A model generated the notes under the pieces. It was not told where the DNA came from and ran no database searches. It saw only the letters and a program-made list of their open reading frames with translations. A DNA stretch of 12,066 nt from a virus (lineage: Duplodnaviria > Heunggongvirae > Uroviricota > Caudoviricetes): IMG/VR virus record IMGVR_UViG_2718217787_000003. One strand, written 5' to 3'. A program made the position numbers and the translations under genes. Below are positions 1,379 through 12,066 of the stretch, piece after piece (the stretch's first letter is position 1; the number at the start of each line of letters is the position of its first letter).

Positions 1379-1678
1379 ATGAAACTTAAATATTCTGGCT
1401 TAACTGCCAGCGGCAAAACTCGCACTAAATTCATGTGCGGGGATATTTACCGCGATAAGTACGGCGGCACGGTAATGATTAAGGGCGTGGAGGAACGGCG
1501 CGTAACCTACCATCGTGAAGGCTACGAATATGATTGCGTGATGCCTGTTTATCAGTTCCGGCGTGATTTTTCTCTGGTACAGGCAGCGCCCCGCAGTAAA
1601 CCAACCAGCAGGGAGAAAGCACGCGCCAATATTCAGGAAATAAAAAAGATGCTTAACGTATTCAGGGGTAAAAAATGA
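1379..1678 (+). CDS. Hypothetical basic protein, 99 aa, immediately upstream of and coupled to the replication gene
   Basis: ATG at 1379 with GGAG about 10 nt upstream. Its TGA stop overlaps the primase ATG (ATGA at 1675-1678). Lys/Arg-rich C-terminus. Confidence 0.5.
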   Translation: MKLKYSGLTASGKTRTKFMCGDIYRDKYGGTVMIKGVEERRVTYHREGYEYDCVMPVYQFRRDFSLVQAAPRSKPTSREKARANIQEIKKMLNVFRGKK

Positions 1679-3807
1679 AACTGGCACCGAACGTAAAAAA
1701 ACAGCCACGCGGAATAAAACACAAAGACACAGAGGTGATTATTTTCGCGGGTAGTGATGCGTGGGCACATGCAAAACAGTGGCAGGAGCAGGACGGCCCC
1801 GCATCCGGCGATAATGTGCCTCCTGTGTGGCTTGGGGAGCAGCAGTTATCAGAACTGGATAAGCTGCAAATTGTGCCGGAAGGCAGAAAATCCGTGCGCA
1901 TATTCAGGGCCGGACATCTTGCACCAGTAATGATCAAGGCGATTGGTCAAAAGCTGGCGGCGGCTGGTGTACAGGATGCAAATTTTTATCCTGAGGGTAT
2001 GCACGGTCAGAAGGTGGAGAACTGGCGCGAATATCTGGCCCGTGAGCGGCAGAATCTTTCTGATGGTCTGGTTATTGAGTTTCCGGTAAAGAAAAAAGAT
2101 ACCGGAAGCCATAGCGATGACGAATTAAAGCCACGCGTTGAAAGTCGCGCCGATGGTGTTTTCTGGGTAACGCCCAAAGTGGATAAGCAGTCAGGCGAAA
2201 TTATCCGGCCTGAGACGTGGTTATGTTCTCCGCTTGAACTACTGGGAACGGGGACGATCGGTAAAGAGCATTACCGCGTGATGCGCTGGAAAAAAACCGC
2301 AAACCATGAAGTCATCACAATGGCGATCCCGTGTGGTGGTATCGGCGACCGTGACGGCTGGCGGTTACTTAAAGATCACGGGCTGAACGTGACAACCAAC
2401 GGCAAATACAGGGCAATCCTGGCGGACTGGATGCAGTTAAGCGGAAGCCATGAGGAATGGCAGTTAAGCACAACAACGGGCTGGCATTTTGGCGCGTACA
2501 TCATGCCGGACGGTTCGATCATTGGTGAATCTGAAAAACCGATCCTGTTTACCGGAAAAAGCGCCGCGATTAACGGTTATTCCGTGGCGGGCACGGCGGA
2601 TGGCTGGCGCGACAGCGTGGCGCGGCTGGCTGGCGGTAATGCCTCAATGATACTGGGTGTGGCAACGTCACTGGCAGCGCCTTTAATTGGCCTTGTGGGT
2701 GCTGACGGCTTCGGGGTGCATCTTTTCGAACAGTCATCGGCAGGTAAGACCACCACGCAGAACATCGCATCAAGTTTATGGGGAGAGCCGGACGCGCAGC
2801 GGCTGACCTGGTACGGCACGGCGTTAGGTATTGCCAATGAGGCCGAGGCCCATAATGACGGGCTTTTACCACTGGATGAGATAGGCCAGGCCGGAAATGC
2901 GCGGGAAGTGTCAACGTCTGCTTATACGCTGTTTAACGGTTCAGGGAAATTGCAGGGGGCGAAGGATGGCGGCAACAGGGAGATCAAACACTGGCGAACG
3001 GTGGCAATCAGCACCGGAGAAATGGACGTTGAGACATTCCTCAAAAGTGAGGGGATAAAAGTTAAGGCGGGGCAGCTTGTCCGACTGCTTAACGTTCCGA
3101 TGGAAAAAGCCACGAAATTTCACGAATACAGCAACGGTAAGGAACATGCTGACGCGTTAAAGGATGCCTGGACAGCAAATCACGGGGCGGCGGGTCGTGA
3201 GTGGGTTAAATGGCTGGCAGGCCACCAGCAGGAGGCAAAGGACACGGTAAGGGAATGCCGCGAACGGTGGCGCAACCTGATACCGGAGAGTTACGGCGAG
3301 CAGGTCCACCGCGTGGGTGAACGTTTCGCCATACTGGAGGCCGCGCTTGTGCTTTCCGGTCATGTAACTGGCTGGGTCGTGCAGGAATGCCGCGACGCGA
3401 TACAGCATAACTTTAATGCCTGGGTGAAGGAGTTCGGCACGGGTAACAGGGAATTTAAACAGATGGTTGAACAGGCTGAGGCGTTTTTGTCGTCGTTTGG
3501 GTTTAGCCGCTACCTTCCGTACCCCAATACAGATGAGCGTGATTTACCGATTAAAGAGCTTGCCGGATACAGAAAAGGGAGCATTCGCAACGAAGATGAC
3601 GAGATGCGCTATTACACGTTCCCGCACGTGTTTGAGAGTGAGATAGCGAAGGGATTTAATCCGGCGCATTTTGCGCGTGCCCTGGATGCTGCCGGAATGC
3701 TGGAGAAGGGAAGCGATCGCCGATACAAAAAAAAGGCGCTGGGCAAGATTGGGGGTAAGCAGCATGTTTTTTACGTGCTGATGTTCCAGCCTGATGATGA
3801 AGATTAA
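1675..3807 (+). CDS. Replication initiator: primase-associated (DUF927-like) region plus P-loop NTPase (Pri-Rep type of satellites/PICIs), 710 aa
   Basis: A 2.1-kb ORF with SD AGGGG 7 nt upstream of ATG 1675. Walker A motif GVHLFEQSSAGKTT at aa 347-360 (nt about 2713-2754). Its position immediately upstream of an iteron array matches the primase-then-ori layout of P4-like satellites and PICIs. Domain names are from motif recognition, not a search. Confidence 0.85.
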   Translation: MKLAPNVKKQPRGIKHKDTEVIIFAGSDAWAHAKQWQEQDGPASGDNVPPVWLGEQQLSELDKLQIVPEGRKSVRIFRAGHLAPVMIKAIGQKLAAAGVQDANFYPEGMHGQKVENWREYLARERQNLSDGLVIEFPVKKKDTGSHSDDELKPRVESRADGVFWVTPKVDKQSGEIIRPETWLCSPLELLGTGTIGKEHYRVMRWKKTANHEVITMAIPCGGIGDRDGWRLLKDHGLNVTTNGKYRAILADWMQLSGSHEEWQLSTTTGWHFGAYIMPDGSIIGESEKPILFTGKSAAINGYSVAGTADGWRDSVARLAGGNASMILGVATSLAAPLIGLVGADGFGVHLFEQSSAGKTTTQNIASSLWGEPDAQRLTWYGTALGIANEAEAHNDGLLPLDEIGQAGNAREVSTSAYTLFNGSGKLQGAKDGGNREIKHWRTVAISTGEMDVETFLKSEGIKVKAGQLVRLLNVPMEKATKFHEYSNGKEHADALKDAWTANHGAAGREWVKWLAGHQQEAKDTVRECRERWRNLIPESYGEQVHRVGERFAILEAALVLSGHVTGWVVQECRDAIQHNFNAWVKEFGTGNREFKQMVEQAEAFLSSFGFSRYLPYPNTDERDLPIKELAGYRKGSIRNEDDEMRYYTFPHVFESEIAKGFNPAHFARALDAAGMLEKGSDRRYKKKALGKIGGKQHVFYVLMFQPDDED

Positions 3808-3829
3808 TCCCCTGTGTGAGGAAAAAAAT

Positions 3830-4145
3830 TGCGGGTTATGCGGGTTATCCTGTGTATAAGTGTATTAAGTGTATGAATATAAAGGAAATCAATAACCCGC
3901 ACGTAACCCGCAAAAGGGCATTTATAACCCGCAAAAGCACGATTATAACCCGCAGGCGAATAACTGAAGTAACACCGGACAGTCATGCGTAACCCGCAGA
4001 AAAAACCCCGTTTGCGGGTTATTTTGAGCGTTTTGCGGGTTACGTGGTGAGCAAATAATAAACAGGGTGTTTTGCAACATGCTGATATAAAAGGGTAAAA
4101 AATGGTTAGCACGCTAAGATAACCCAATAACCCGCATAACCCGCA
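3830..4145. repeat. Iteron-type origin of replication
   Basis: Seven direct copies of TAACCCGCA (3893-3901, 3904-3912, 3925-3933, 3946-3954, 3990-3998, 4128-4136, 4137-4145) and four inverted copies TGCGGGTTA (3830-3838, 3839-3847, 4013-4021, 4034-4042), with a degenerate copy at 4120-4127. Three GTGTAT-containing repeats with roughly 9-10 bp spacing at 3852-3880. A (TA)n AT-rich tract lies just downstream at 4153-4170. No credible ORF on the + strand here. Confidence 0.8.
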
Positions 4146-4179
4146 CATGTTTCTATATATATATAAATTGAGGTGGCAA

Positions 4180-4431
4180 ATGACCAGAACACGCAGAGAC
4201 AGAACAGAGCCGAAATATAAAGCGTTAGATATAACAGAGCTGGCCTTAAAGGTGGCAATCAGAACGATAGACCGACACGTAGGGGAAGGATACGCGAAGG
4301 AACATCCCGACCTGATAAGCGCATTCATGACCACAGCAGCGGCAAACTTTGCCACGTTGACAGAACGGGAGATTGCCGAAGCGGAACAGGTAACAACCAT
4401 CAACGTTAAAACCGGAGAGTTGAAATCATGA
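4180..4431 (+). CDS. Hypothetical protein, 83 aa
   Basis: ATG at 4180 preceded by SD GAGGTGG (4170-4176); track ORF 4147..4431 trimmed. Stop overlaps the next start (ATGA at 4428-4431). Confidence 0.55.
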   Translation: MTRTRRDRTEPKYKALDITELALKVAIRTIDRHVGEGYAKEHPDLISAFMTTAAANFATLTEREIAEAEQVTTINVKTGELKS

Positions 4432-5444: not shown

Positions 5445-5468
5445 AGCCGGAGCAATCCGGCTTTTTGT
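5445..5468 (+). terminator. Rho-independent terminator after the PerC-like gene
   Basis: Stem AGCCGGA (5445-5451), loop GCAA, stem TCCGGCT (5456-5462), then TTTTGT (5463-5468). Confidence 0.6.
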
Positions 5469-5485
5469 CATGTTTTGTAAATTAT

Positions 5486-5635
5486 TTGTTCGTGGTTGTT
5501 CCACGTTGTTCGCTGACCGGATCGGCATATTTTACCCGAACTGAATCATGATTATTCTCGCCCGTGGTGCCAGGACGCTGGGGCCACTTTCCCGCCTGTT
5601 AATGTGCTCGCCAATATTCATTACCAGGCGGGAAA
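5486..5635. promoter_or_regulatory. Leader of the head operon with tandem decamers and an 11-bp inverted repeat
   Basis: Three tandem 10-bp units TTGTTCGTGG / TTGTTCCACG / TTGTTCGCTG (5486-5515), containing the palindrome CGTGG-TTGTT-CCACG (5491-5505). An 11-bp perfect inverted repeat TTTCCCGCCTG (5588-5598) / CAGGCGGGAAA (5625-5635) with a 26-nt spacer. No clear sigma-70 consensus identified. Confidence 0.3.
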
Positions 5636-5725
5636 ACGATCGGTGCGATTGCTGATTTCCTTATGAAAAACGGTTGAGTGTTTGCCGCGTCCTGGAGTTC
5701 CTTACTTAACTTCAGGACTTTTTTT

Positions 5726-6883
5726 ATGCCGAGAATAATCGAATTACGCCAGCAGAAAACCGCCATTAAAAATCAGATGCGCGACATGCTGGAGAACGCG
5801 GAAAAAGAAAACCGCAGCCTTAACGATGCTGAGGGCGCAAAATTTGACGAATTACGCGCTAAAGCTGAATCCCTCGATAAAGACATCTCCCGCCTTGAGG
5901 CCGTTGCTGACGAAGAGCGCAGTAAACCAGGCAAAAACAGCCAGACCACTGACCCCGCCGAACTACGTCACTACATTCTGACAGGTGAAACCCGCGCATT
6001 GAGTACAGGCGTTCCCGCTGATGGTGGTTATACCGTTATCCCCGAACTGAACACCGAAATCATGCGAATGCTGACGGATGAATCCACCATGCGCCGCATC
6101 TGTACCGTGAAGAAAATCAGCAGCAACGAGTTTAAGCAGCTTGTTTCCGCTGGCGGTGCGACCGTTAACCACGGTGAAGAGGGTAAGGCACGCGAACAGA
6201 CCAGCACCCCGCAGATTAACGAGGTGAGCATTAAGCTGTATCCGGTCTATGCGTACCCGCGCACCACGCAGGAAATCGTGGATTTTTCCGATGTGGACAT
6301 CCTTTCATGGCTGACGGGCGAGATTGGCGACACCTTCACGGAAACCGAAGAAAGCGATCTGGTTGTGGGCGACGGTGACAAAAAAGCAAAAGGTTTTTTA
6401 TCCGTACCCCGTGCAGAGAAGAACGACAAAGAGCGTGATTTTGGTACGTTGCAGGTAATTAAACCTTCCGAATCTCTGGCGTGGACATCTGCGGACCCGC
6501 TGATCGACCTGAAATTTGCATTACGTAAAAAATACCGCAAAAACGCGGTTTGGGTGGTTAACTCCACGACGGCGGCAAAACTCCAGAAGGTGAAGAACGC
6601 GAACGGTGATTACATCTGGCGCGACCGTTTACAGGCGGGTGATCCTGATACGTTGCTGGGCCTTCCGGTCGAATATCTGGAGTTTATGCCTGATAACGTT
6701 ATTGCCCTGGGTGACTTCAAACGCGGTTACTACATTGTTGATCACGAAACAGGTGTTCGCACCAGACCGGACAACCTCACAGAGCCGGGCTTTATCAAAA
6801 TTTTCACGCAGAAATATTTAGGCGGTGGCGTGGTGGATTCGAACGCTATAAAGATTCTGGAACTGCCGCAGGACGACGATTAA
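5726..6883 (+). CDS. Major capsid protein, HK97 fold, with N-terminal coiled-coil delta (scaffold-like) domain, 385 aa
   Basis: ATG at 5726 with AGGA 8 nt upstream; the track ORF begins at GTG 5678. The N-terminal 90 aa are coiled-coil-like (IELRQQKTAIKNQMRDMLENAEKENRSLNDAEGAKFDELRAKAESLDKDISRLEAV), followed by a body typical of HK97-family capsid proteins. A prohead protease gene follows directly. Confidence 0.9.
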   Translation: MPRIIELRQQKTAIKNQMRDMLENAEKENRSLNDAEGAKFDELRAKAESLDKDISRLEAVADEERSKPGKNSQTTDPAELRHYILTGETRALSTGVPADGGYTVIPELNTEIMRMLTDESTMRRICTVKKISSNEFKQLVSAGGATVNHGEEGKAREQTSTPQINEVSIKLYPVYAYPRTTQEIVDFSDVDILSWLTGEIGDTFTETEESDLVVGDGDKKAKGFLSVPRAEKNDKERDFGTLQVIKPSESLAWTSADPLIDLKFALRKKYRKNAVWVVNSTTAAKLQKVKNANGDYIWRDRLQAGDPDTLLGLPVEYLEFMPDNVIALGDFKRGYYIVDHETGVRTRPDNLTEPGFIKIFTQKYLGGGVVDSNAIKILELPQDDD

Positions 6884-6937: not shown

Positions 6938-7495
6938 ATGATGAGTATGGAAATCCGGTCATCGGAAATCACCACCAGCGGCAGCAACACGCTTACGGGC
7001 TACGTTGTTCGCTGGGATAACCTTTCAGAACTGCTATGGGGCGAATTTTACGAAAAATTCCAGCGGGGGGCGTTTACTGAATGGCTTGCGGTGGGTAATG
7101 ACGTTCGCGGCCTGTATGAGCATGACCACAGCATGTTACTGGGGCGCACCCGTTCCGGTACGCTGAGACTGGAAGAGGATGACACAGGGTTACGTTTTGA
7201 ACTGATCCCACCGGATACCAGCACAGGGCGGGACGTTATCGAACTGGTTAAACGTGGTGACATCTCGGGCATGAGCTTTGGCTTTCGTTCCCGTAAGGAT
7301 GTATGGGATACGACAGTCGATCCATGTGTGCGTACTGTACTGATAGCGGAACTGTACGAAATTACCGTGACATCCGTACCGGCTTACCCTGATTCCGGCG
7401 TGGAGCTGGCCCGCCGTTCCCTGTATGAGCAGCACCCTGAAAAAATGCCTCGTGCGGATAATCGCCGCTGGTGGGCGGATTTAGCGGGGGTGTGA
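6938..7495 (+). CDS. Prohead maturation protease, HK97 family, 185 aa
   Basis: SD AGGTGA (6925-6930) before ATG 6938. Sequence (…LTGYVVRWDNLSELLWGEFYEKFQRGAFTEWL…) and position between the capsid and portal genes fit HK97-type prohead proteases. Confidence 0.85.
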   Translation: MMSMEIRSSEITTSGSNTLTGYVVRWDNLSELLWGEFYEKFQRGAFTEWLAVGNDVRGLYEHDHSMLLGRTRSGTLRLEEDDTGLRFELIPPDTSTGRDVIELVKRGDISGMSFGFRSRKDVWDTTVDPCVRTVLIAELYEITVTSVPAYPDSGVELARRSLYEQHPEKMPRADNRRWWADLAGV

Positions 7496-7496
7496 T

Positions 7497-8708
7497 ATGT
7501 GGCCTTTCAGAAGAAAAAAAGAGCAGCGCAGCATGACGCTTGATGAGTTTATGGCGCTGGCTGGCACATCGAACACGGGGGCGGGTGAGTACGTATCATC
7601 GGGGACAGCGGAATCACTGCCCGCCGTCATGAACGCCGTCACGGTCATCTCTGAGGCGGTGGCTACCATGCCGTGTTACCTGTACCTGGTACGCAATGAG
7701 AAGGGGAAGGAGGCCCGAGAGTGGCTTGATTCTCATCCGGTCGATCACATCCTCAACGAGCGCCCGAACGCATGGCAAACCCCCTACCAGTTTAAGCGAA
7801 TGATGATCCGCCACTGCCTGTTAAACGGTAATGCTTATGCGGTGATTCGGTGGGGGCGTGATGGTTTTCCGGTGGCTTTACATCCTTACCCGCCGCAGTC
7901 GGTGAACGTGGAGCAGACAGGTGAGCATAACTGGCGCTACTGCATCACTGACGCCTACACCGGAAACACCCGCAACTATTTACCGTGGGAGGTTCTCCAC
8001 CTTCGTTACTCCACGGATGACGGTTTTATGGGGCGCTCACCTGTAACCATCTGCCGCGAATCGCTGGGGCTTGGGCTGGCCCAACAACGCCACGGCGCGA
8101 GCGTGATGCGTGATGGCATGATGGCGGCAGGGGTTATCACGTCAGGCGAGTGGCTGGACGGCGTGAAGGGTAAACAGGCATTAGCCGCACTGGAACGCTA
8201 CAAAGGGGCCAGAAACGCCGGAAAAACGCCCATCCTTGAAGGGGGTATGAGCTATCAGCAGCTGGGCATGAGTAATCAGGATGCTGAATGGCTGGCCTCC
8301 CGTCGCTTCACCATTGAAGACATCGCCCGAATGTTCAACGTCTCGCCGATTTTTTTGCAGGAATACAGCAACAGCACCTACAGCAATTTCAGCGAGGCAA
8401 GCCGCGCATTTCTCACCATGACGATGCGCCCGTGGCTGGCGAACTTTGAGCAGCAGATAAAAAACGCCCTGCTGGTGGCCTCGCCTGTACCTGGTATCCG
8501 GTATCAGGTGGAGTTTGACAGCGCGGACCTGTTACGGGCCACACCTGGCGAACGCTTTGCCACCTATGAACGCGGCATCAAATCCGGCGTTATGTGCCCG
8601 AACGAAGCCCGCGAACGTGAAGGGCTGTCCCCGCGTGATGGTGGTGATGAGTTCAGCCAGGCATGGAAACAGGAAGTAAAAATCAGCGAGGGAGAAAAAC
8701 CGGAATGA
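7497..8708 (+). CDS. Portal protein, HK97 family, 403 aa
   Basis: ATG at 7497, 1 nt after the protease stop, with SD GGGGGTG upstream. Size and sequence character fit HK97-type portals. An alternative start at ATG 7539 is possible. Confidence 0.85.
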   Translation: MWPFRRKKEQRSMTLDEFMALAGTSNTGAGEYVSSGTAESLPAVMNAVTVISEAVATMPCYLYLVRNEKGKEAREWLDSHPVDHILNERPNAWQTPYQFKRMMIRHCLLNGNAYAVIRWGRDGFPVALHPYPPQSVNVEQTGEHNWRYCITDAYTGNTRNYLPWEVLHLRYSTDDGFMGRSPVTICRESLGLGLAQQRHGASVMRDGMMAAGVITSGEWLDGVKGKQALAALERYKGARNAGKTPILEGGMSYQQLGMSNQDAEWLASRRFTIEDIARMFNVSPIFLQEYSNSTYSNFSEASRAFLTMTMRPWLANFEQQIKNALLVASPVPGIRYQVEFDSADLLRATPGERFATYERGIKSGVMCPNEAREREGLSPRDGGDEFSQAWKQEVKISEGEKPE

Positions 8709-9043
8709 ACATAGGGCGACTGCGTGACAGGATAACGATTCAGACCCTGAAACAGACCAGGGATATAACCGGCGAAATACTCGAAACGTGGGTGGACGGT
8801 CACACACTCTGGGCAAGCGTGAACATGATCAGCAGCAAGGAGGCCATTTCATCGGGTGCAGAACTGGCGACTGGAACGGTAAGGATATGGATACGCTACA
8901 GGAAGGACATCAACGCCACCAGCCGGATAAAGGTCAATACGGGGCCGCTGGCGGGGCGTGTACTGAATATCATCGGGCAGCCGCTGCCGGATGCCGCCAG
9001 GACACGCCTTGAAATTCTTTGTCGTGAGGGCGCGGAAAAATGA
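8705..9043 (+). CDS. Head closure / head-tail joining protein (SPP1 gp16-like), 112 aa
   Basis: ATG at 8705 overlaps the portal stop (ATGA); track ORF 8663..9043 trimmed to this ATG. MNIGRLRDRITIQ...RIWIRYRKDI...LEILCRE matches the head-tail joining family pattern as I recall it. Confidence 0.75.
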   Translation: MNIGRLRDRITIQTLKQTRDITGEILETWVDGHTLWASVNMISSKEAISSGAELATGTVRIWIRYRKDINATSRIKVNTGPLAGRVLNIIGQPLPDAARTRLEILCREGAEK

Positions 9044-9336
9044 CAGAAGAACTTATCACCCTGGAAGAAGTGAAACTCCATTGCCGCATCGATGGCGACG
9101 AGGAAGACCAGTTAATCAGCGGATACATCGCCGCATCGCTTGAGGCGTGCCAGATACACATAGGCAGGCGCTTTGATGACGGGCTGGAGTTCACGCCAGC
9201 CATAAAGATTGGCTGCATGATGTTTATCGCTCACCTGTATGAAAATCGCCAGATTGTCGCGGATAACGCAAAAACACGCGTACCCATGACGATTGGTGCA
9301 CTCTGGACGGCTTACCGTGATGTGGGGGTGTACTGA
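9040..9336 (+). CDS. gp6-like head-tail connector protein, 98 aa
   Basis: ATG at 9040 overlaps the upstream stop (ATGA). N-terminus LITLEEVKLHCRIDGDEEDQLISGYIAAS is typical of gp6-like connector proteins. Confidence 0.75.
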   Translation: MTEELITLEEVKLHCRIDGDEEDQLISGYIAASLEACQIHIGRRFDDGLEFTPAIKIGCMMFIAHLYENRQIVADNAKTRVPMTIGALWTAYRDVGVY

Positions 9337-9776
9337 TGCCGTGGCAACCATTAAGACGATGCACAGAACCAGGCTGTAACAGGCGCGTGAAGTCCGGCAA
9401 GTGTGAGGAGCACAGGCGGGCGGCATGGCGTGCAGAGGATGCCAGACGAGGACACCGCCGCGCGCGTGGGTACTCCAGACAGTGGGACAAATACCGCGCC
9501 ATGTATCTGAGTAAAAACCCGTTATGCGTGCGATGCCTTGAGAAGGGGATATATACGCCCGCCGTGGTGGTGGATCACATTATCCCGATTAATGGCGGTG
9601 ATGATGTTCTCTTCTGGCCCGAATGGAACCATCAGCCATTGTGCCAGGCGTGCCATAACCAGAAAACGAAATGGCTTGATCCGGCAACAAAAAGCAAGCG
9701 TGCCGCAGGTGGATTTCGTGAAGAGGAAGAACGGGCCGCTAACCGCAATAACTGGATGTATGACGCTGATGAATGA
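9336..9776 (+). CDS. HNH endonuclease (packaging-associated), 146 aa
   Basis: ATG at 9336 overlaps the connector stop (TGATG). Cys pairs (CxxC) and an HNH core DHIIPINGGDDVLFWPEWNHQPLCQACHNQKT. Sits directly upstream of the terminase genes, as in HK97-like cos phages. Confidence 0.9.
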   Translation: MPWQPLRRCTEPGCNRRVKSGKCEEHRRAAWRAEDARRGHRRARGYSRQWDKYRAMYLSKNPLCVRCLEKGIYTPAVVVDHIIPINGGDDVLFWPEWNHQPLCQACHNQKTKWLDPATKSKRAAGGFREEEERAANRNNWMYDADE

Positions 9777-9942
9777 GCGGGAACAAAACCGCCTTATCCG
9801 TGGACTTATAAGGCAGCGTGACGCATGGAAGACACAGGAAACAGGGCATAAAGATAAAGCGTCAGGACGCGCAGAACGCATCACAGCGAAGCGATTAACC
9901 GACCGTGACTGCGAGGTTATGGAATGTTTCCGCAATCGCTGA
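9760..9942 (+). CDS. Possible small basic ORF (60 aa) in the HNH-terS gap; doubtful
   Basis: Part of track ORF 9538..9942, most of which overlaps HNH out of frame. Only the part from ATG 9760 (or ATG 9769) is non-overlapping. No convincing SD. Confidence 0.2.
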   Translation: MTLMNEREQNRLIRGLIRQRDAWKTQETGHKDKASGRAERITAKRLTDRDCEVMECFRNR

Positions 9943-10064
9943 TGAGGCTGTATGACGGGGTGGGGGGCGTTTTCAGGACAAACCCGCCCCCGCCGGGCAC
10001 CGAACGCCTCCTCAAATTTTTATGCACGGGAATTTTTTGAAAAATAATCTGACGAAAAATAAAC
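9943..10064. other. Candidate packaging site (cos) region between HNH and terS
   Basis: Non-coding gap with a G-run/C-run imperfect inverted repeat, GGGGGCG (9963-9969) / CGCCCCC (9985-9991), followed by an AT-rich stretch (10015-10062). Location matches where cos lies in HNH-associated cos phages. No direct evidence of cleavage. Confidence 0.3.
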
Positions 10065-10421
10065 ATGGCAAGACCACCGAAAGCCCCCGCCTACCTTGAT
10101 GACATCGCCGTAAAGCAGTGGCGGGAAAAATCGCGCCAGCTTGCGGAACGGGGAGACCTCACCCCCGCCGACTGGAGTAATCTCGAACTGTATTGCGTCA
10201 ACTACTCGATATACAGGAAAGCCGTCGCAGACCTTGCGGCACGCGGGTTCAGCATTGTTAACAGTCAGGGCGGAGAGAGCAGAAACCCCGCATTAAGCGC
10301 GAAATCCGACGCTGAAAGAGTGATGATAAAAATGGCCTCCTTGCTTGGTTTTGACCCGATAAGCCGCCGTAAAAATCCACCGGAAACAGAAGAAGAGGAC
10401 GAGCTTGACCACCTGGAATAA
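10065..10421 (+). CDS. terS: Terminase small subunit, P27-family-like, 118 aa
   Basis: ATG at 10065. Size, charge pattern (acidic C-terminus EEEDELDHLE) and position directly upstream of terL. Sequence (MARPPKAPAYLDD...RNPALSA...MASLLGFDPISRRK) fits P27-type TerS as I recall it. Confidence 0.8.
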   Translation: MARPPKAPAYLDDIAVKQWREKSRQLAERGDLTPADWSNLELYCVNYSIYRKAVADLAARGFSIVNSQGGESRNPALSAKSDAERVMIKMASLLGFDPISRRKNPPETEEEDELDHLE

Positions 10422-12066
10422 GTACGCAGAAGACGTAAAAACGGGCAAAATTCCGGCCTGTAAACGGTTAAAACAGGCCGTTAAACGGTACTTTTCGGAC
10501 CTTAAAAGTCCCCTTTACACGTTCGATAGTGAGGTTGTGGAGCGGTTTATTGCCTTTTCAAGGGTGTGCCCGCACGTAAAAGGGCCGTTGCGTGGCAGAC
10601 CCATTGAGCTGGAGCCGTGGCAGCAGTTCGCCTTTGCGTGCATCCTGGGTTTTAAGGTTAAGGCCACCGGACGGCGCAAATACTCGAGCGCTTTTATCGA
10701 AGTACCGCGAAAAAATGCGAAATCCACGACCGCCGCGATTCTGGCTGACTGGTTTCTGATTATGGAGAACGGGCAGCAGGATATTTACACCGCAGCGGTG
10801 AGCCGTGACCAGGCACGGATCGTGTTTGATGATGCGCGTCAGATGTGCCTTTTATCCCGACCGTTACGCAGGCGGGTGAATATTCAGGCCCACAAGGTGA
10901 TACACCCGAAAACCAACAGCCTGTTAAAGCCGCTGGCAGCAAAAGCGGCAACCATCGAGGGGACAAACCCGAGTCTTGCCATTGTGGACGAATATCACCT
11001 GCACCCCGATAACGGCGTTTATTCCGCGCTTGAGCTGGGGATGGGTGCACGTCCCGAAGGGCTGTTATTTGCCATTACCACATCGGGAAGTAACGTCGTT
11101 TCAGCCTGTAAGCAGCACTATGATTATTGCTGCCAGATCCTGGACGGCGAAGAGGTCAACGAATCGCTTTTTGTGCTGATTTACGAGCTGGACGATGAAA
11201 ACGAGGTTGACGATCCGGCGATGTGGATAAAGGCGAATCCCAATATCGATGTTTCCGTTGATCGTGAAAAACTGGCCTCAACCATCCAGAAAGCGCGGGG
11301 TATTCCGTCGCAGTGGGTGGAGATGATGACAAAGCGGTTTAACATCTGGTGCCAGGGGGCCACCCCGTGGATGGGTAACGGGGCGTGGGCTGAGTGTGCC
11401 GGAACGTTCACGGAGGAGGATTTACACGGCCAGGAATGTTACGCGGGGCTTGATTTGTCATCCACAAGCGACATTTCCAGCGTGTGCTATGCCTTTCCGG
11501 TCGGCAAAAAAATTATGCTGCTTTCCCGTCACTATCTGCCGGAATTTCAGCTACAGAACCCCGCCAACAAGAACCGGGCCATTTATCGCCAGTGGGCTAA
11601 ATCGGGCTGGTTGCGGATAACGCCGGGCGACTGCATTGATTACGACCGGATCCGCGATGACATCATGGAGGACGCGGAAAAATTTGATATCAGGCTGGTG
11701 GGCTTTGATACGTGGAACGCCACGCATCTCAGGACGCAATTACAGGGGGCAGGGTTTGAGGTTGAGCCGTTCCCGCAAACCTATCTGAGATTCAGTCCGG
11801 CGGCGAAATCGTTCGAAGTTTTTGTTAACCGCAGGGTGATAGTCCATCGTGATGATCCGGTGTTGTCGTGGTCGATGAGTAACGTCGTGATGCAGAGTGA
11901 CGCGAACGCCAATATCAAGCCAAACAAGAAAAAATCACCGAACAAGATAGACCCGAGCGTGGCGGCACTGATGGCGTTTGGCACATTCCAGGCAGAGCAT
12001 GAAGATTTTGCTTTTGATATAAGCGACAGCCACCGCGAAAAACTGGAAGAATTTAACGGGGTGTGA
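10405..12066 (+). CDS. terL: Terminase large subunit, 553 aa
   Basis: A 1.66-kb ORF directly after terS. The first in-frame start is TTG at 10405 with SD GAAGAGGA (10391-10398); the next candidates are a GTG about 130 nt downstream and an ATG at codon 120. Overlaps terS by 17 nt. Size and sequence fit HK97-type large terminases (ATPase plus nuclease). Stop TGA at 12064-12066 is the window end. Confidence 0.88.
   Translation: MTTWNKYAEDVKTGKIPACKRLKQAVKRYFSDLKSPLYTFDSEVVERFIAFSRVCPHVKGPLRGRPIELEPWQQFAFACILGFKVKATGRRKYSSAFIEVPRKNAKSTTAAILADWFLIMENGQQDIYTAAVSRDQARIVFDDARQMCLLSRPLRRRVNIQAHKVIHPKTNSLLKPLAAKAATIEGTNPSLAIVDEYHLHPDNGVYSALELGMGARPEGLLFAITTSGSNVVSACKQHYDYCCQILDGEEVNESLFVLIYELDDENEVDDPAMWIKANPNIDVSVDREKLASTIQKARGIPSQWVEMMTKRFNIWCQGATPWMGNGAWAECAGTFTEEDLHGQECYAGLDLSSTSDISSVCYAFPVGKKIMLLSRHYLPEFQLQNPANKNRAIYRQWAKSGWLRITPGDCIDYDRIRDDIMEDAEKFDIRLVGFDTWNATHLRTQLQGAGFEVEPFPQTYLRFSPAAKSFEVFVNRRVIVHRDDPVLSWSMSNVVMQSDANANIKPNKKKSPNKIDPSVAALMAFGTFQAEHEDFAFDISDSHREKLEEFNGV

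Follow-up and report, generated by a model that had tools for sequence, protein, structure and literature searches.

Probable cos site of the phiP27/SfV type between the HNH and terS genes of a capsid-forming PICI of Escherichia coli O157

The window analysed here is the whole 12,066-nt stretch of IMG/VR record IMGVR_UViG_2718217787_000003, and it is a capsid-forming PICI (cf-PICI) of E. coli O157. Both the Pfam assignments and the RefSeq context placed it in this class. E. coli O157:H7 strain MB41-1 is 100% identical to the window over 9300-10500, and in its RefSeq context the element extends over about 15.5 kb from int through terL and one additional small ORF, and adjoins thiM. No tail or lysis genes were found in the MB41-1 copy of the element from int to terL, and this extent matches the published cf-PICI definition. 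In the HNH-terS region, the DNA of the element is 72% identical to the EDL933 copy, and 329 E. coli genomes match that region at 95-99% identity. The TerL encoded by the window shares 81% identity with the TerL of vB_KppS-Ant, which is a cf-PICI from K. pneumoniae DSM 30104. The genes are listed below in window coordinates, with the Pfam or PHROG family that supports the more detailed assignments.

1675-3807: DUF927 primase (Pfam)
5678-6883 (RefSeq start 5726): major capsid protein (Pfam)
6938-7495: prohead protease (Pfam)
7497-8708: portal protein (Pfam)
8663-9043: head completion protein (Pfam)
9040-9336: connector protein (Pfam)
9336-9776, plus strand: HNH endonuclease, a packaging accessory nuclease (PF01844; phrog_144; 38% identical to phiP27 L34, an HNH protein)
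9769-9942 (RefSeq start 9760), plus strand: small conserved ORF of 57 aa in the interval between HNH and cos (phrog_3173, E=3.7e-36, no assigned function)
10065-10421, plus strand: terS, small terminase of the P27 family (PF05119; phrog_83; 31% identical to phiP27 L35)
10405-12066, plus strand: terL, large terminase with ATPase and nuclease (PF03354, PF20441; 30% identical to phiP27 L36)

All packaging genes within the window are intact. The 57-aa ORF retains a C-terminal ECFRNR end in many Enterobacteriaceae and is missing or replaced in Xenorhabdus, Aeromonas, Pasteurella, and one Citrobacter locus (L008). Two stem-loops, each followed by a T-run, lie at 5445-5725 in front of the capsid gene with its RefSeq start at 5726. 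One (5445-5462) follows a PerC-family gene, and the other (5689-5718) has an 11-pair stem directly before the capsid start codon; the latter stem could gate expression of the packaging operon.

Between the stop codon of the 57-aa ORF and the terS start at 10065 there is no annotated gene, so the 122-bp gap at 9943-10064 proposed in the first-pass annotation is real. The G-run GGGGTGGGGGGCG (9957-9969), the C-run CCCGCCCCCGCC (9983-9994), and an A/T-rich 3' half that it had pointed out are all present. We divide the gap core into the following blocks, all on the plus strand.

9957-9982, plus strand: upstream block of the probable cos site, consisting of the G-run GGGGTGGGGGG and TTTTCAGGACAAA; GGGTGGGGG is nearly invariant across 33 loci of different genera
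9983-9995, plus strand: spacer of fixed length and variable sequence that holds the C-run; per-base identity 0.2-0.5, with the sequence differing by lineage
9996-10000, plus strand: GGCAC, left flank of the predicted cut; GG(C/A)AC is conserved in cf-PICIs, with GGGAC in phiP27 and CGGAC in SfV
10001-10010, plus strand: predicted 10-nt cohesive end CGAACGCCTC; collinear base by base with phiP27 CGCCCGCCCC and SfI TGCCCGCCCC
10011-10022, plus strand: right flank CTCAAATTTTTA, the most invariant run; per-base identity 0.8-0.99, common to phiP27, where it reads GTCAAATTTTTA
10023-10047, plus strand: cf-PICI-specific downstream block TGCACGGGAATTTTTTGAAAAATAA; conserved in all cf-PICI loci and different in phiP27 and SfV

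Each of the core motifs has one copy in the 12-kb window by motif scan, with ~3.5 kb of the element lying beyond the window. The right flank CTCAAATTTTTA and the TCAAATTTTTA string fit the IHF core consensus TCAANNNNTTR.

We then took the sequence in front of terS from 33 genomes representing different species, 80 IMG/VR loci, and two Pasteurella records. Nearly all copies align without gaps from GGGTGGGGG to GAAAATAA. Among the 33 loci, mean pairwise identity reaches its maximum of 0.84 at 9996-10040, a value equal to or above that of every window of HNH, terS, and the aligned part of terL. Across the same loci, which span Escherichia to Pasteurella and Aeromonas, the roughly 90 bp at 9957-10047 are the most conserved DNA of the HNH-terS-terL region, and mean pairwise identity in the neighboring 57-aa ORF falls to 0.07-0.34. 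The gap blocks persist in Pasteurella, Aeromonas, and Xenorhabdus, even in the copies where the 57-aa ORF is missing.

The pattern of this conservation is not that of a gene. Codon-phase identity in the gap core is 0.71-0.77 in all three phases, and in HNH, terS, and terL third positions stand at 0.41-0.51 versus 0.66-0.88 for first and second positions. The conserved core has no codon periodicity and is therefore a cis-acting site. A 49-aa ORF on the minus strand (9917-10066) does exist, and its frame is open in most relatives, but conservation in it shows no 3-nt periodicity (0.71/0.77/0.74), the frame is broken in the Pasteurella copies, the predicted product is of low complexity, and runs of 12 invariant bases are not expected from coding constraint. 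We ruled this ORF out as coding on the lack of periodicity, and the idea that a small minus-strand protein accounts for the conservation is hardly credible. At 9957-10047 there is thus a non-coding cis element under strong constraint, with one copy in the window.

A cis element directly upstream of terS could be mainly a control region for transcription or translation of terS and terL, holding a promoter, an operator, or a leader. The stretch 10048-10064 must contain the ribosome-binding region, an A/T-rich block beside a gene start is typical of regulatory DNA, and packaging and control functions could coexist in the same gap. However, conservation is strongest 45-65 nt upstream of the start codon and weakest over the final ~20 nt ahead of the terS ATG. 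We found no sigma-70-like promoter and no terminator on the plus strand of the gap, a search of Rfam returned no match for the gap at E<=1, and the core shares homology with a phage site annotated as cos, as described below. Control of terS and terL as the main role of the gap is thus quite unlikely.

The Pasteurella records are those of Pasteurella phages Pmp7 and Pmp8 (OR544138/OR544139; loci L120 and L121), at 10.7 kb and 15.3 kb. Their TerL is 69% identical to that of the window, and they carry the same cos blocks, including AATCAAATTTTTA. This string is a full match to the IHF consensus. Pmp7 and Pmp8 look like cf-PICI-type elements of Pasteurellaceae.

The inverted repeat at 9963-9991, formed by the G-run and the C-run, had been proposed, together with the AT-rich segment after it, as a plausible cleavage-site and terminase-binding arrangement. 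The data do not confirm the repeat as more than chance, and it is not the key feature of the gap. The repeat is a 7-bp complement only, pairing GGGGGCG (9963-9969) with CGCCCCC (9985-9991), and falls under the 8-nt reporting limit of our repeat scan. Folded as single-stranded DNA, the gap is no more stable than its shuffles (z=-0.01), and the 3' arm sits in the variable spacer. The 12-nt C-run itself hinges on one base, position 9987, which is C in the window and a few relatives and A in most close E. coli copies (CCCGACCCCGCC). Copies from other genera have unrelated sequence of equal length in place of the C-run arm.

These observations bear on whether the G-run/C-run repeat acts as a hairpin or cruciform, either as a structure-specific cleavage site or as a terminator. 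The 7-bp complement is perfect and the G-run is also able to pair with 10003-10011, but the 3' arm is broken in most close relatives, and, on inspection of 68 distinct sequences, the G-run and either C-rich segment did not vary together in a consistently compensatory way. Fold, Rfam, and terminator scans gave no indication of a structured RNA or an intrinsic terminator in the gap. Given the fold z and the non-conserved 3' arm, we ruled out the hairpin reading, and a functional hairpin here is very unlikely. A small spacer hairpin seen by eye in some lineages (CCTC..GAGG, CCGG..CCGG) was also rejected, as other lineages, such as the one with CCCGACCCCGCCCAG, lack it.

The nature of the cis element is indicated by homology to mapped and annotated phage cos sites. 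We searched 50,697 phage records with an EDL933-type gap using blastn, and beyond cf-PICI-derived records the only match was phiP27 (26/28), where the match falls on a feature annotated "cos-site." A profile HMM built from 68 distinct cf-PICI gaps was then run against the whole 42.6-kb phiP27 genome with nhmmer. There was a single significant match, at 21788-21840 (27.4 bits, E=1.5e-7), centred on the annotated cos-site. In the record of phiP27, an Stx2e phage (AJ298298.1), this misc_feature at 21806-21815 is a 10-nt cos-site, CGCCCGCCCC, located between L34 and L35. Most cf-PICIs have the identical 10-mer at the aligned position, followed, as in phiP27, by TCAAATTTTTA, and the G-run lies 46 nt upstream of the 10-mer in cf-PICIs, phiP27, and SfV alike.

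The genes around the two sites correspond as well. In phiP27, L34, L35, and L36 encode HNH, Terminase_4, and TerL proteins, giving the same order of HNH, cos, P27-family terS, and terL as in the window. PF01844, PF05119, and PF03354/PF20441 are found in the proteins of both, which are homologous at 30-38% identity. The two differ downstream of the right flank, with CCCGCGAAATTAAAAATTT in phiP27 versus GCACGG..ATTTTTTGAAAA in cf-PICIs, and phiP27 is a complete myovirus, whereas the element in the window is a tail-less satellite.

Direct evidence for ends of this type comes from Shigella phage SfI, whose termini were sequenced from particle DNA and showed a near-identical 10-nt cos, 5'-TGCCCGCCCC-3' (PMC3636060). 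The packaging genes of SfI resemble those of SfV and phiP27, and the SfV record has the SfI string at the corresponding place in the alignment. The cos sites of SfI, SfV, SfII, and SfIV are collinear with the cf-PICI site, with equal G-run spacing and the same HNH-cos-terS order. The right flank of these Shigella phages, ATCGTTTTTTTA, is more diverged from the cf-PICI site, and the SfV junction alone gives a weak match to the cf-PICI profile (E=1.3).

We conclude that the gap core at about 9957-10047 is, in all likelihood, the HNH-associated cos site of the cf-PICI and of the phiP27/SfV type. The first-pass annotation had placed a candidate cos site in the HNH-terS gap, and homology to the phiP27 site, the mapped 10-nt cos of SfI, breaks in particle-derived records, and reported cohesive ends all agree with this placement. 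Its cleavage-site anatomy stands as far as the gap is concerned and shifts within it: the predicted cut lies at about 10001-10010 instead of in the 9963-9991 repeat. The cos site is thus very probably located to about ten bases, with a predicted nicking core that consists of GGCAC, the 10-mer, and CTCAAATTTTTA.

The 10-mer of the window, CGAACGCCTC, differs from CGCCCGCCCC, the form of the cf-PICI consensus and of phiP27, at 3/10 positions. Because of these differences, the cleavage competence of the window 10-mer is an assumption. One alternative is that the site is a cos by descent that has become inactive here, the 10-mer having drifted and the island no longer packaging itself. The three substitutions relative to phiP27 and most cf-PICIs would fit such decay, and decayed copies do exist, as in a Shigella flexneri locus that has lost its cos and the 5' end of terS. 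Against this, the packaging genes of the window are all intact, the flanking invariant blocks are untouched, and the same or a near-identical 10-mer variant recurs in close E. coli relatives from IMG/VR. The 10-mer also varies in other lineages, and the region is kept in the 329 E. coli genomes that match it at 95-99%. An inactive cos in the window is therefore unlikely.

Among cf-PICI lineages, the 10-mer appears as CGCCCGCCCC, CACCCGCCCC, CGACCGCCTC, CGAACGCCTC, CGCCTGCCCC, and others, between invariant flanks, and the ends of different lineages are therefore expected to be non-complementary. The decayed Shigella flexneri copy (SFBU1023, CP182556.1; locus L004) has a deletion equivalent to window positions ~9986-10088. 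It starts just past GACAAACCCG in the spacer and reaches CCCCGCCTACC within terS, and its two ends apparently lie at short CCCCGCC repeats. The deletion removes the cos core and the first 7 codons of terS, so this is a decayed and presumably non-packageable cf-PICI.

We also considered records derived from particles. DNA of cf-PICIs has been reported to have cohesive ends, and packaged Klebsiella cf-PICI DNA concatemerises through them (He et al., bioRxiv 10.1101/2025.02.11.637232). Our literature search for a mapped cf-PICI cos or mapped cf-PICI termini found none. The genome assembly of vB_KppS-Ant comes from a Nextera XT library made with particle DNA (PMC8006926). Its linear record (LR881103.1) opens 22 nt upstream of terS and closes 37 nt beyond the small ORF. 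A nearly identical copy on a chromosome (L005) has 69 nt that the record lacks, and the missing stretch extends from 21 nt before the 10-mer to 38 nt past it. We would expect a transposase library to drop a few tens of bases at each true end, and a circular or permuted molecule would not be expected to lose them. In the record of Klebsiella phage P12620-1 (PQ569648.1), the gap is absent too, since the cf-PICI part extends from the start codon of terS to a point just past the small ORF. The missing ends of these two assemblies are circumstantial evidence that points to the gap. Among IMG/VR and JGI metagenome contigs, we found none ending at the predicted cut. One candidate, a locus starting at CAAATTTTTAC (L247), was set aside because its start is the boundary of a stored sequence chunk and not a contig end.

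Both Klebsiella records are of further note for their contents. PQ569648.1 is deposited as a 106.5-kb "complete genome," in which the cf-PICI forms the last ~16 kb (90.6-106.5 kb; loci L003 and L119). The assembly is apparently chimeric, combining a phage with a satellite that was purified along with it, because the cf-PICI joins unrelated sequence exactly at the terS start codon. In the vB_KppS-Ant paper, the subject is called a filamentous phage with ssDNA and is described as an induced prophage (PMC8006926). LR881103.1 encodes capsid, portal, HNH, terS, and terL, making it the cf-PICI of K. pneumoniae DSM 30104, and it carries the annotation "tail length tape measure protein" at 2036-4333.

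The breaks in these records also bear on whether the true cos lies elsewhere, for example in the intergenic region at 5470-5725, with the gap as a relic. The stretch 5463-5725 is another long one that has no annotated gene, and it has predicted hairpins. However, no copy of the cos motif was found at 5470-5725 or at other window positions, the stem-loops and T-runs of 5463-5725 look like terminators in front of the capsid operon, and the particle-derived records break at the HNH-terS gap instead. A cos outside the gap is highly improbable, and the HNH-terS gap is retained as its place.

A functional parallel is phage HK97, where cos likewise lies between the HNH and terS genes. Cutting at the HK97 cos leaves 3' overhangs of 10 nt and is stimulated by gp74, an HNH protein, and the HK97 TerS binds 15 bp at +15 to +29, CTAACCCGATTTTTT, where a G:C pair at +21 and an A-tract are required (PMC11331095, PMC9410871). 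The layout is similar to that of the cf-PICI site: a G-run lies upstream, the end is C-rich, and a GC element with a T-tract ~15-29 nt past the cut makes up the TerS site. Counted from the predicted cut after 10010, GCACGGGAATTTTTT of the window lies at +14 to +28, and by analogy would mirror the mapped TerS site of HK97. The block at 10023-10047 is a candidate binding site for the small terminase. VarioGold, another TerL relative, also has 10-nt 3' ends (PMC9658991). Since both HK97 and VarioGold have ends of this polarity, the predicted 10-nt overhang at 10001-10010 would likewise protrude at its 3' end.

We treat these HK97 parallels, namely the TerS site spacing and the 3' polarity, as analogies. 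Pairwise alignment of the gap to the HK97 cos gave z=-0.5 with the window sequence, z=-0.4 with the Klebsiella copy, and z=3.1 with the EDL933-type copy, and the cf-PICI profile searched against the whole HK97 genome had no match at the cos junction. Homology to the HK97 cos was rejected on the window's z and the lack of a profile match, and HK97 was kept as a functional analogy. The TerS of the window has no similarity to HK97 gp1 by BLASTP (E=2.4), and gp1 has no Terminase_4 match.

This comparison extends to helper phages. HK106 and HK446 are known helpers of EcCIEDL933, and both have terS-terL sequences 100% identical to those of HK97 and cos regions 95-97% identical. As judged by sequence, the satellite cos is distinct from the HK97-type cos of these helpers, because there is no profile match, the alignment is non-significant, and the TerS proteins are unrelated in sequence. 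This distinction fits the mutually exclusive, self-selective packaging that has been reported. A satellite cos of the phiP27/SfV type, set against a helper cos of the HK97 type, would explain why the packaging of the two does not cross. The proposal that the cos is specific to the element, made when the gap was first annotated, needs to be narrowed: the site is unlike the helper cos, but its cleavage core is common to phiP27/SfV-type phages. Only the downstream flank is private to cf-PICIs when compared with phiP27 and SfV.

In classical cos-packaged satellites, a single cos directs unit-length packaging (bioRxiv 10.1101/2022.09.08.507074). P4, the cos SaPIs, and the E. coli PICIs with Rpp carry the cos of their helper or redirect its terminase, whereas cf-PICIs encode their own HNH, TerS, and TerL and have a cos unlike that of their helpers. 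In the phage lambda cos (cosQ-cosN-cosB), the nicking site lies between an upstream element and the side that binds terminase, and the Nu1/A terminase produces 12-nt 5' overhangs with no HNH protein. The lambda cos shares this functional logic with the cf-PICI site, and at the Pfam level a sequence relation is neither seen nor expected.

From these comparisons, we propose how the site may work. After induction and replication, the P27-family TerS would bind the GC-rich/T-tract block at about 10023-10047 and position TerL. TerL and the HNH protein would then make staggered nicks around CGAACGCCTC (10001-10010), producing 10-nt cohesive ends that are probably 3'-protruding. Packaging would proceed rightwards from terS through the circularised element and stop at the next cos. 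The G-run block at 9957-9982 would then be at the incoming right end of the packaged genome, where it may act in termination or in positioning the nuclease. In this scheme, the exact nick positions, the overhang polarity, the TerS-binding block, and the role of the G-run are all inferred.

The site type is what a specialist would expect for such an element, and the understanding of cos packaging is unchanged by it. The cos motif is usable as a marker for cf-PICIs and for mis-filed "phage" records. It is already known that cf-PICIs package only themselves, through their own HNH, TerS, and TerL. The literature that we searched had not located the DNA signal for this self-packaging, which is placed here on a 90-bp segment. 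Together with the predicted 10-nt end and the candidate TerS block, this segment is a directly testable fragment.

More tentatively, the cf-PICI cos may be a composite, in which a nicking core common to phiP27/SfV-type myoviruses (GGmAC, the C-rich 10-mer, and TCAAATTTTTA) is joined to a private cf-PICI TerS-binding block; we regard this as possible, though somewhat less probable than its converse. The downstream block is almost unchanged from Escherichia to Pasteurella and Aeromonas. If the cos is composite in this way, the terminase of any cf-PICI could package the DNA of all others, the signal would be pan-genus, and the site would be invisible to the HK97-type terminases of tail-donating helpers. 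Lineages with an altered 10-mer, such as that of the window, would then form separate end-compatibility groups.
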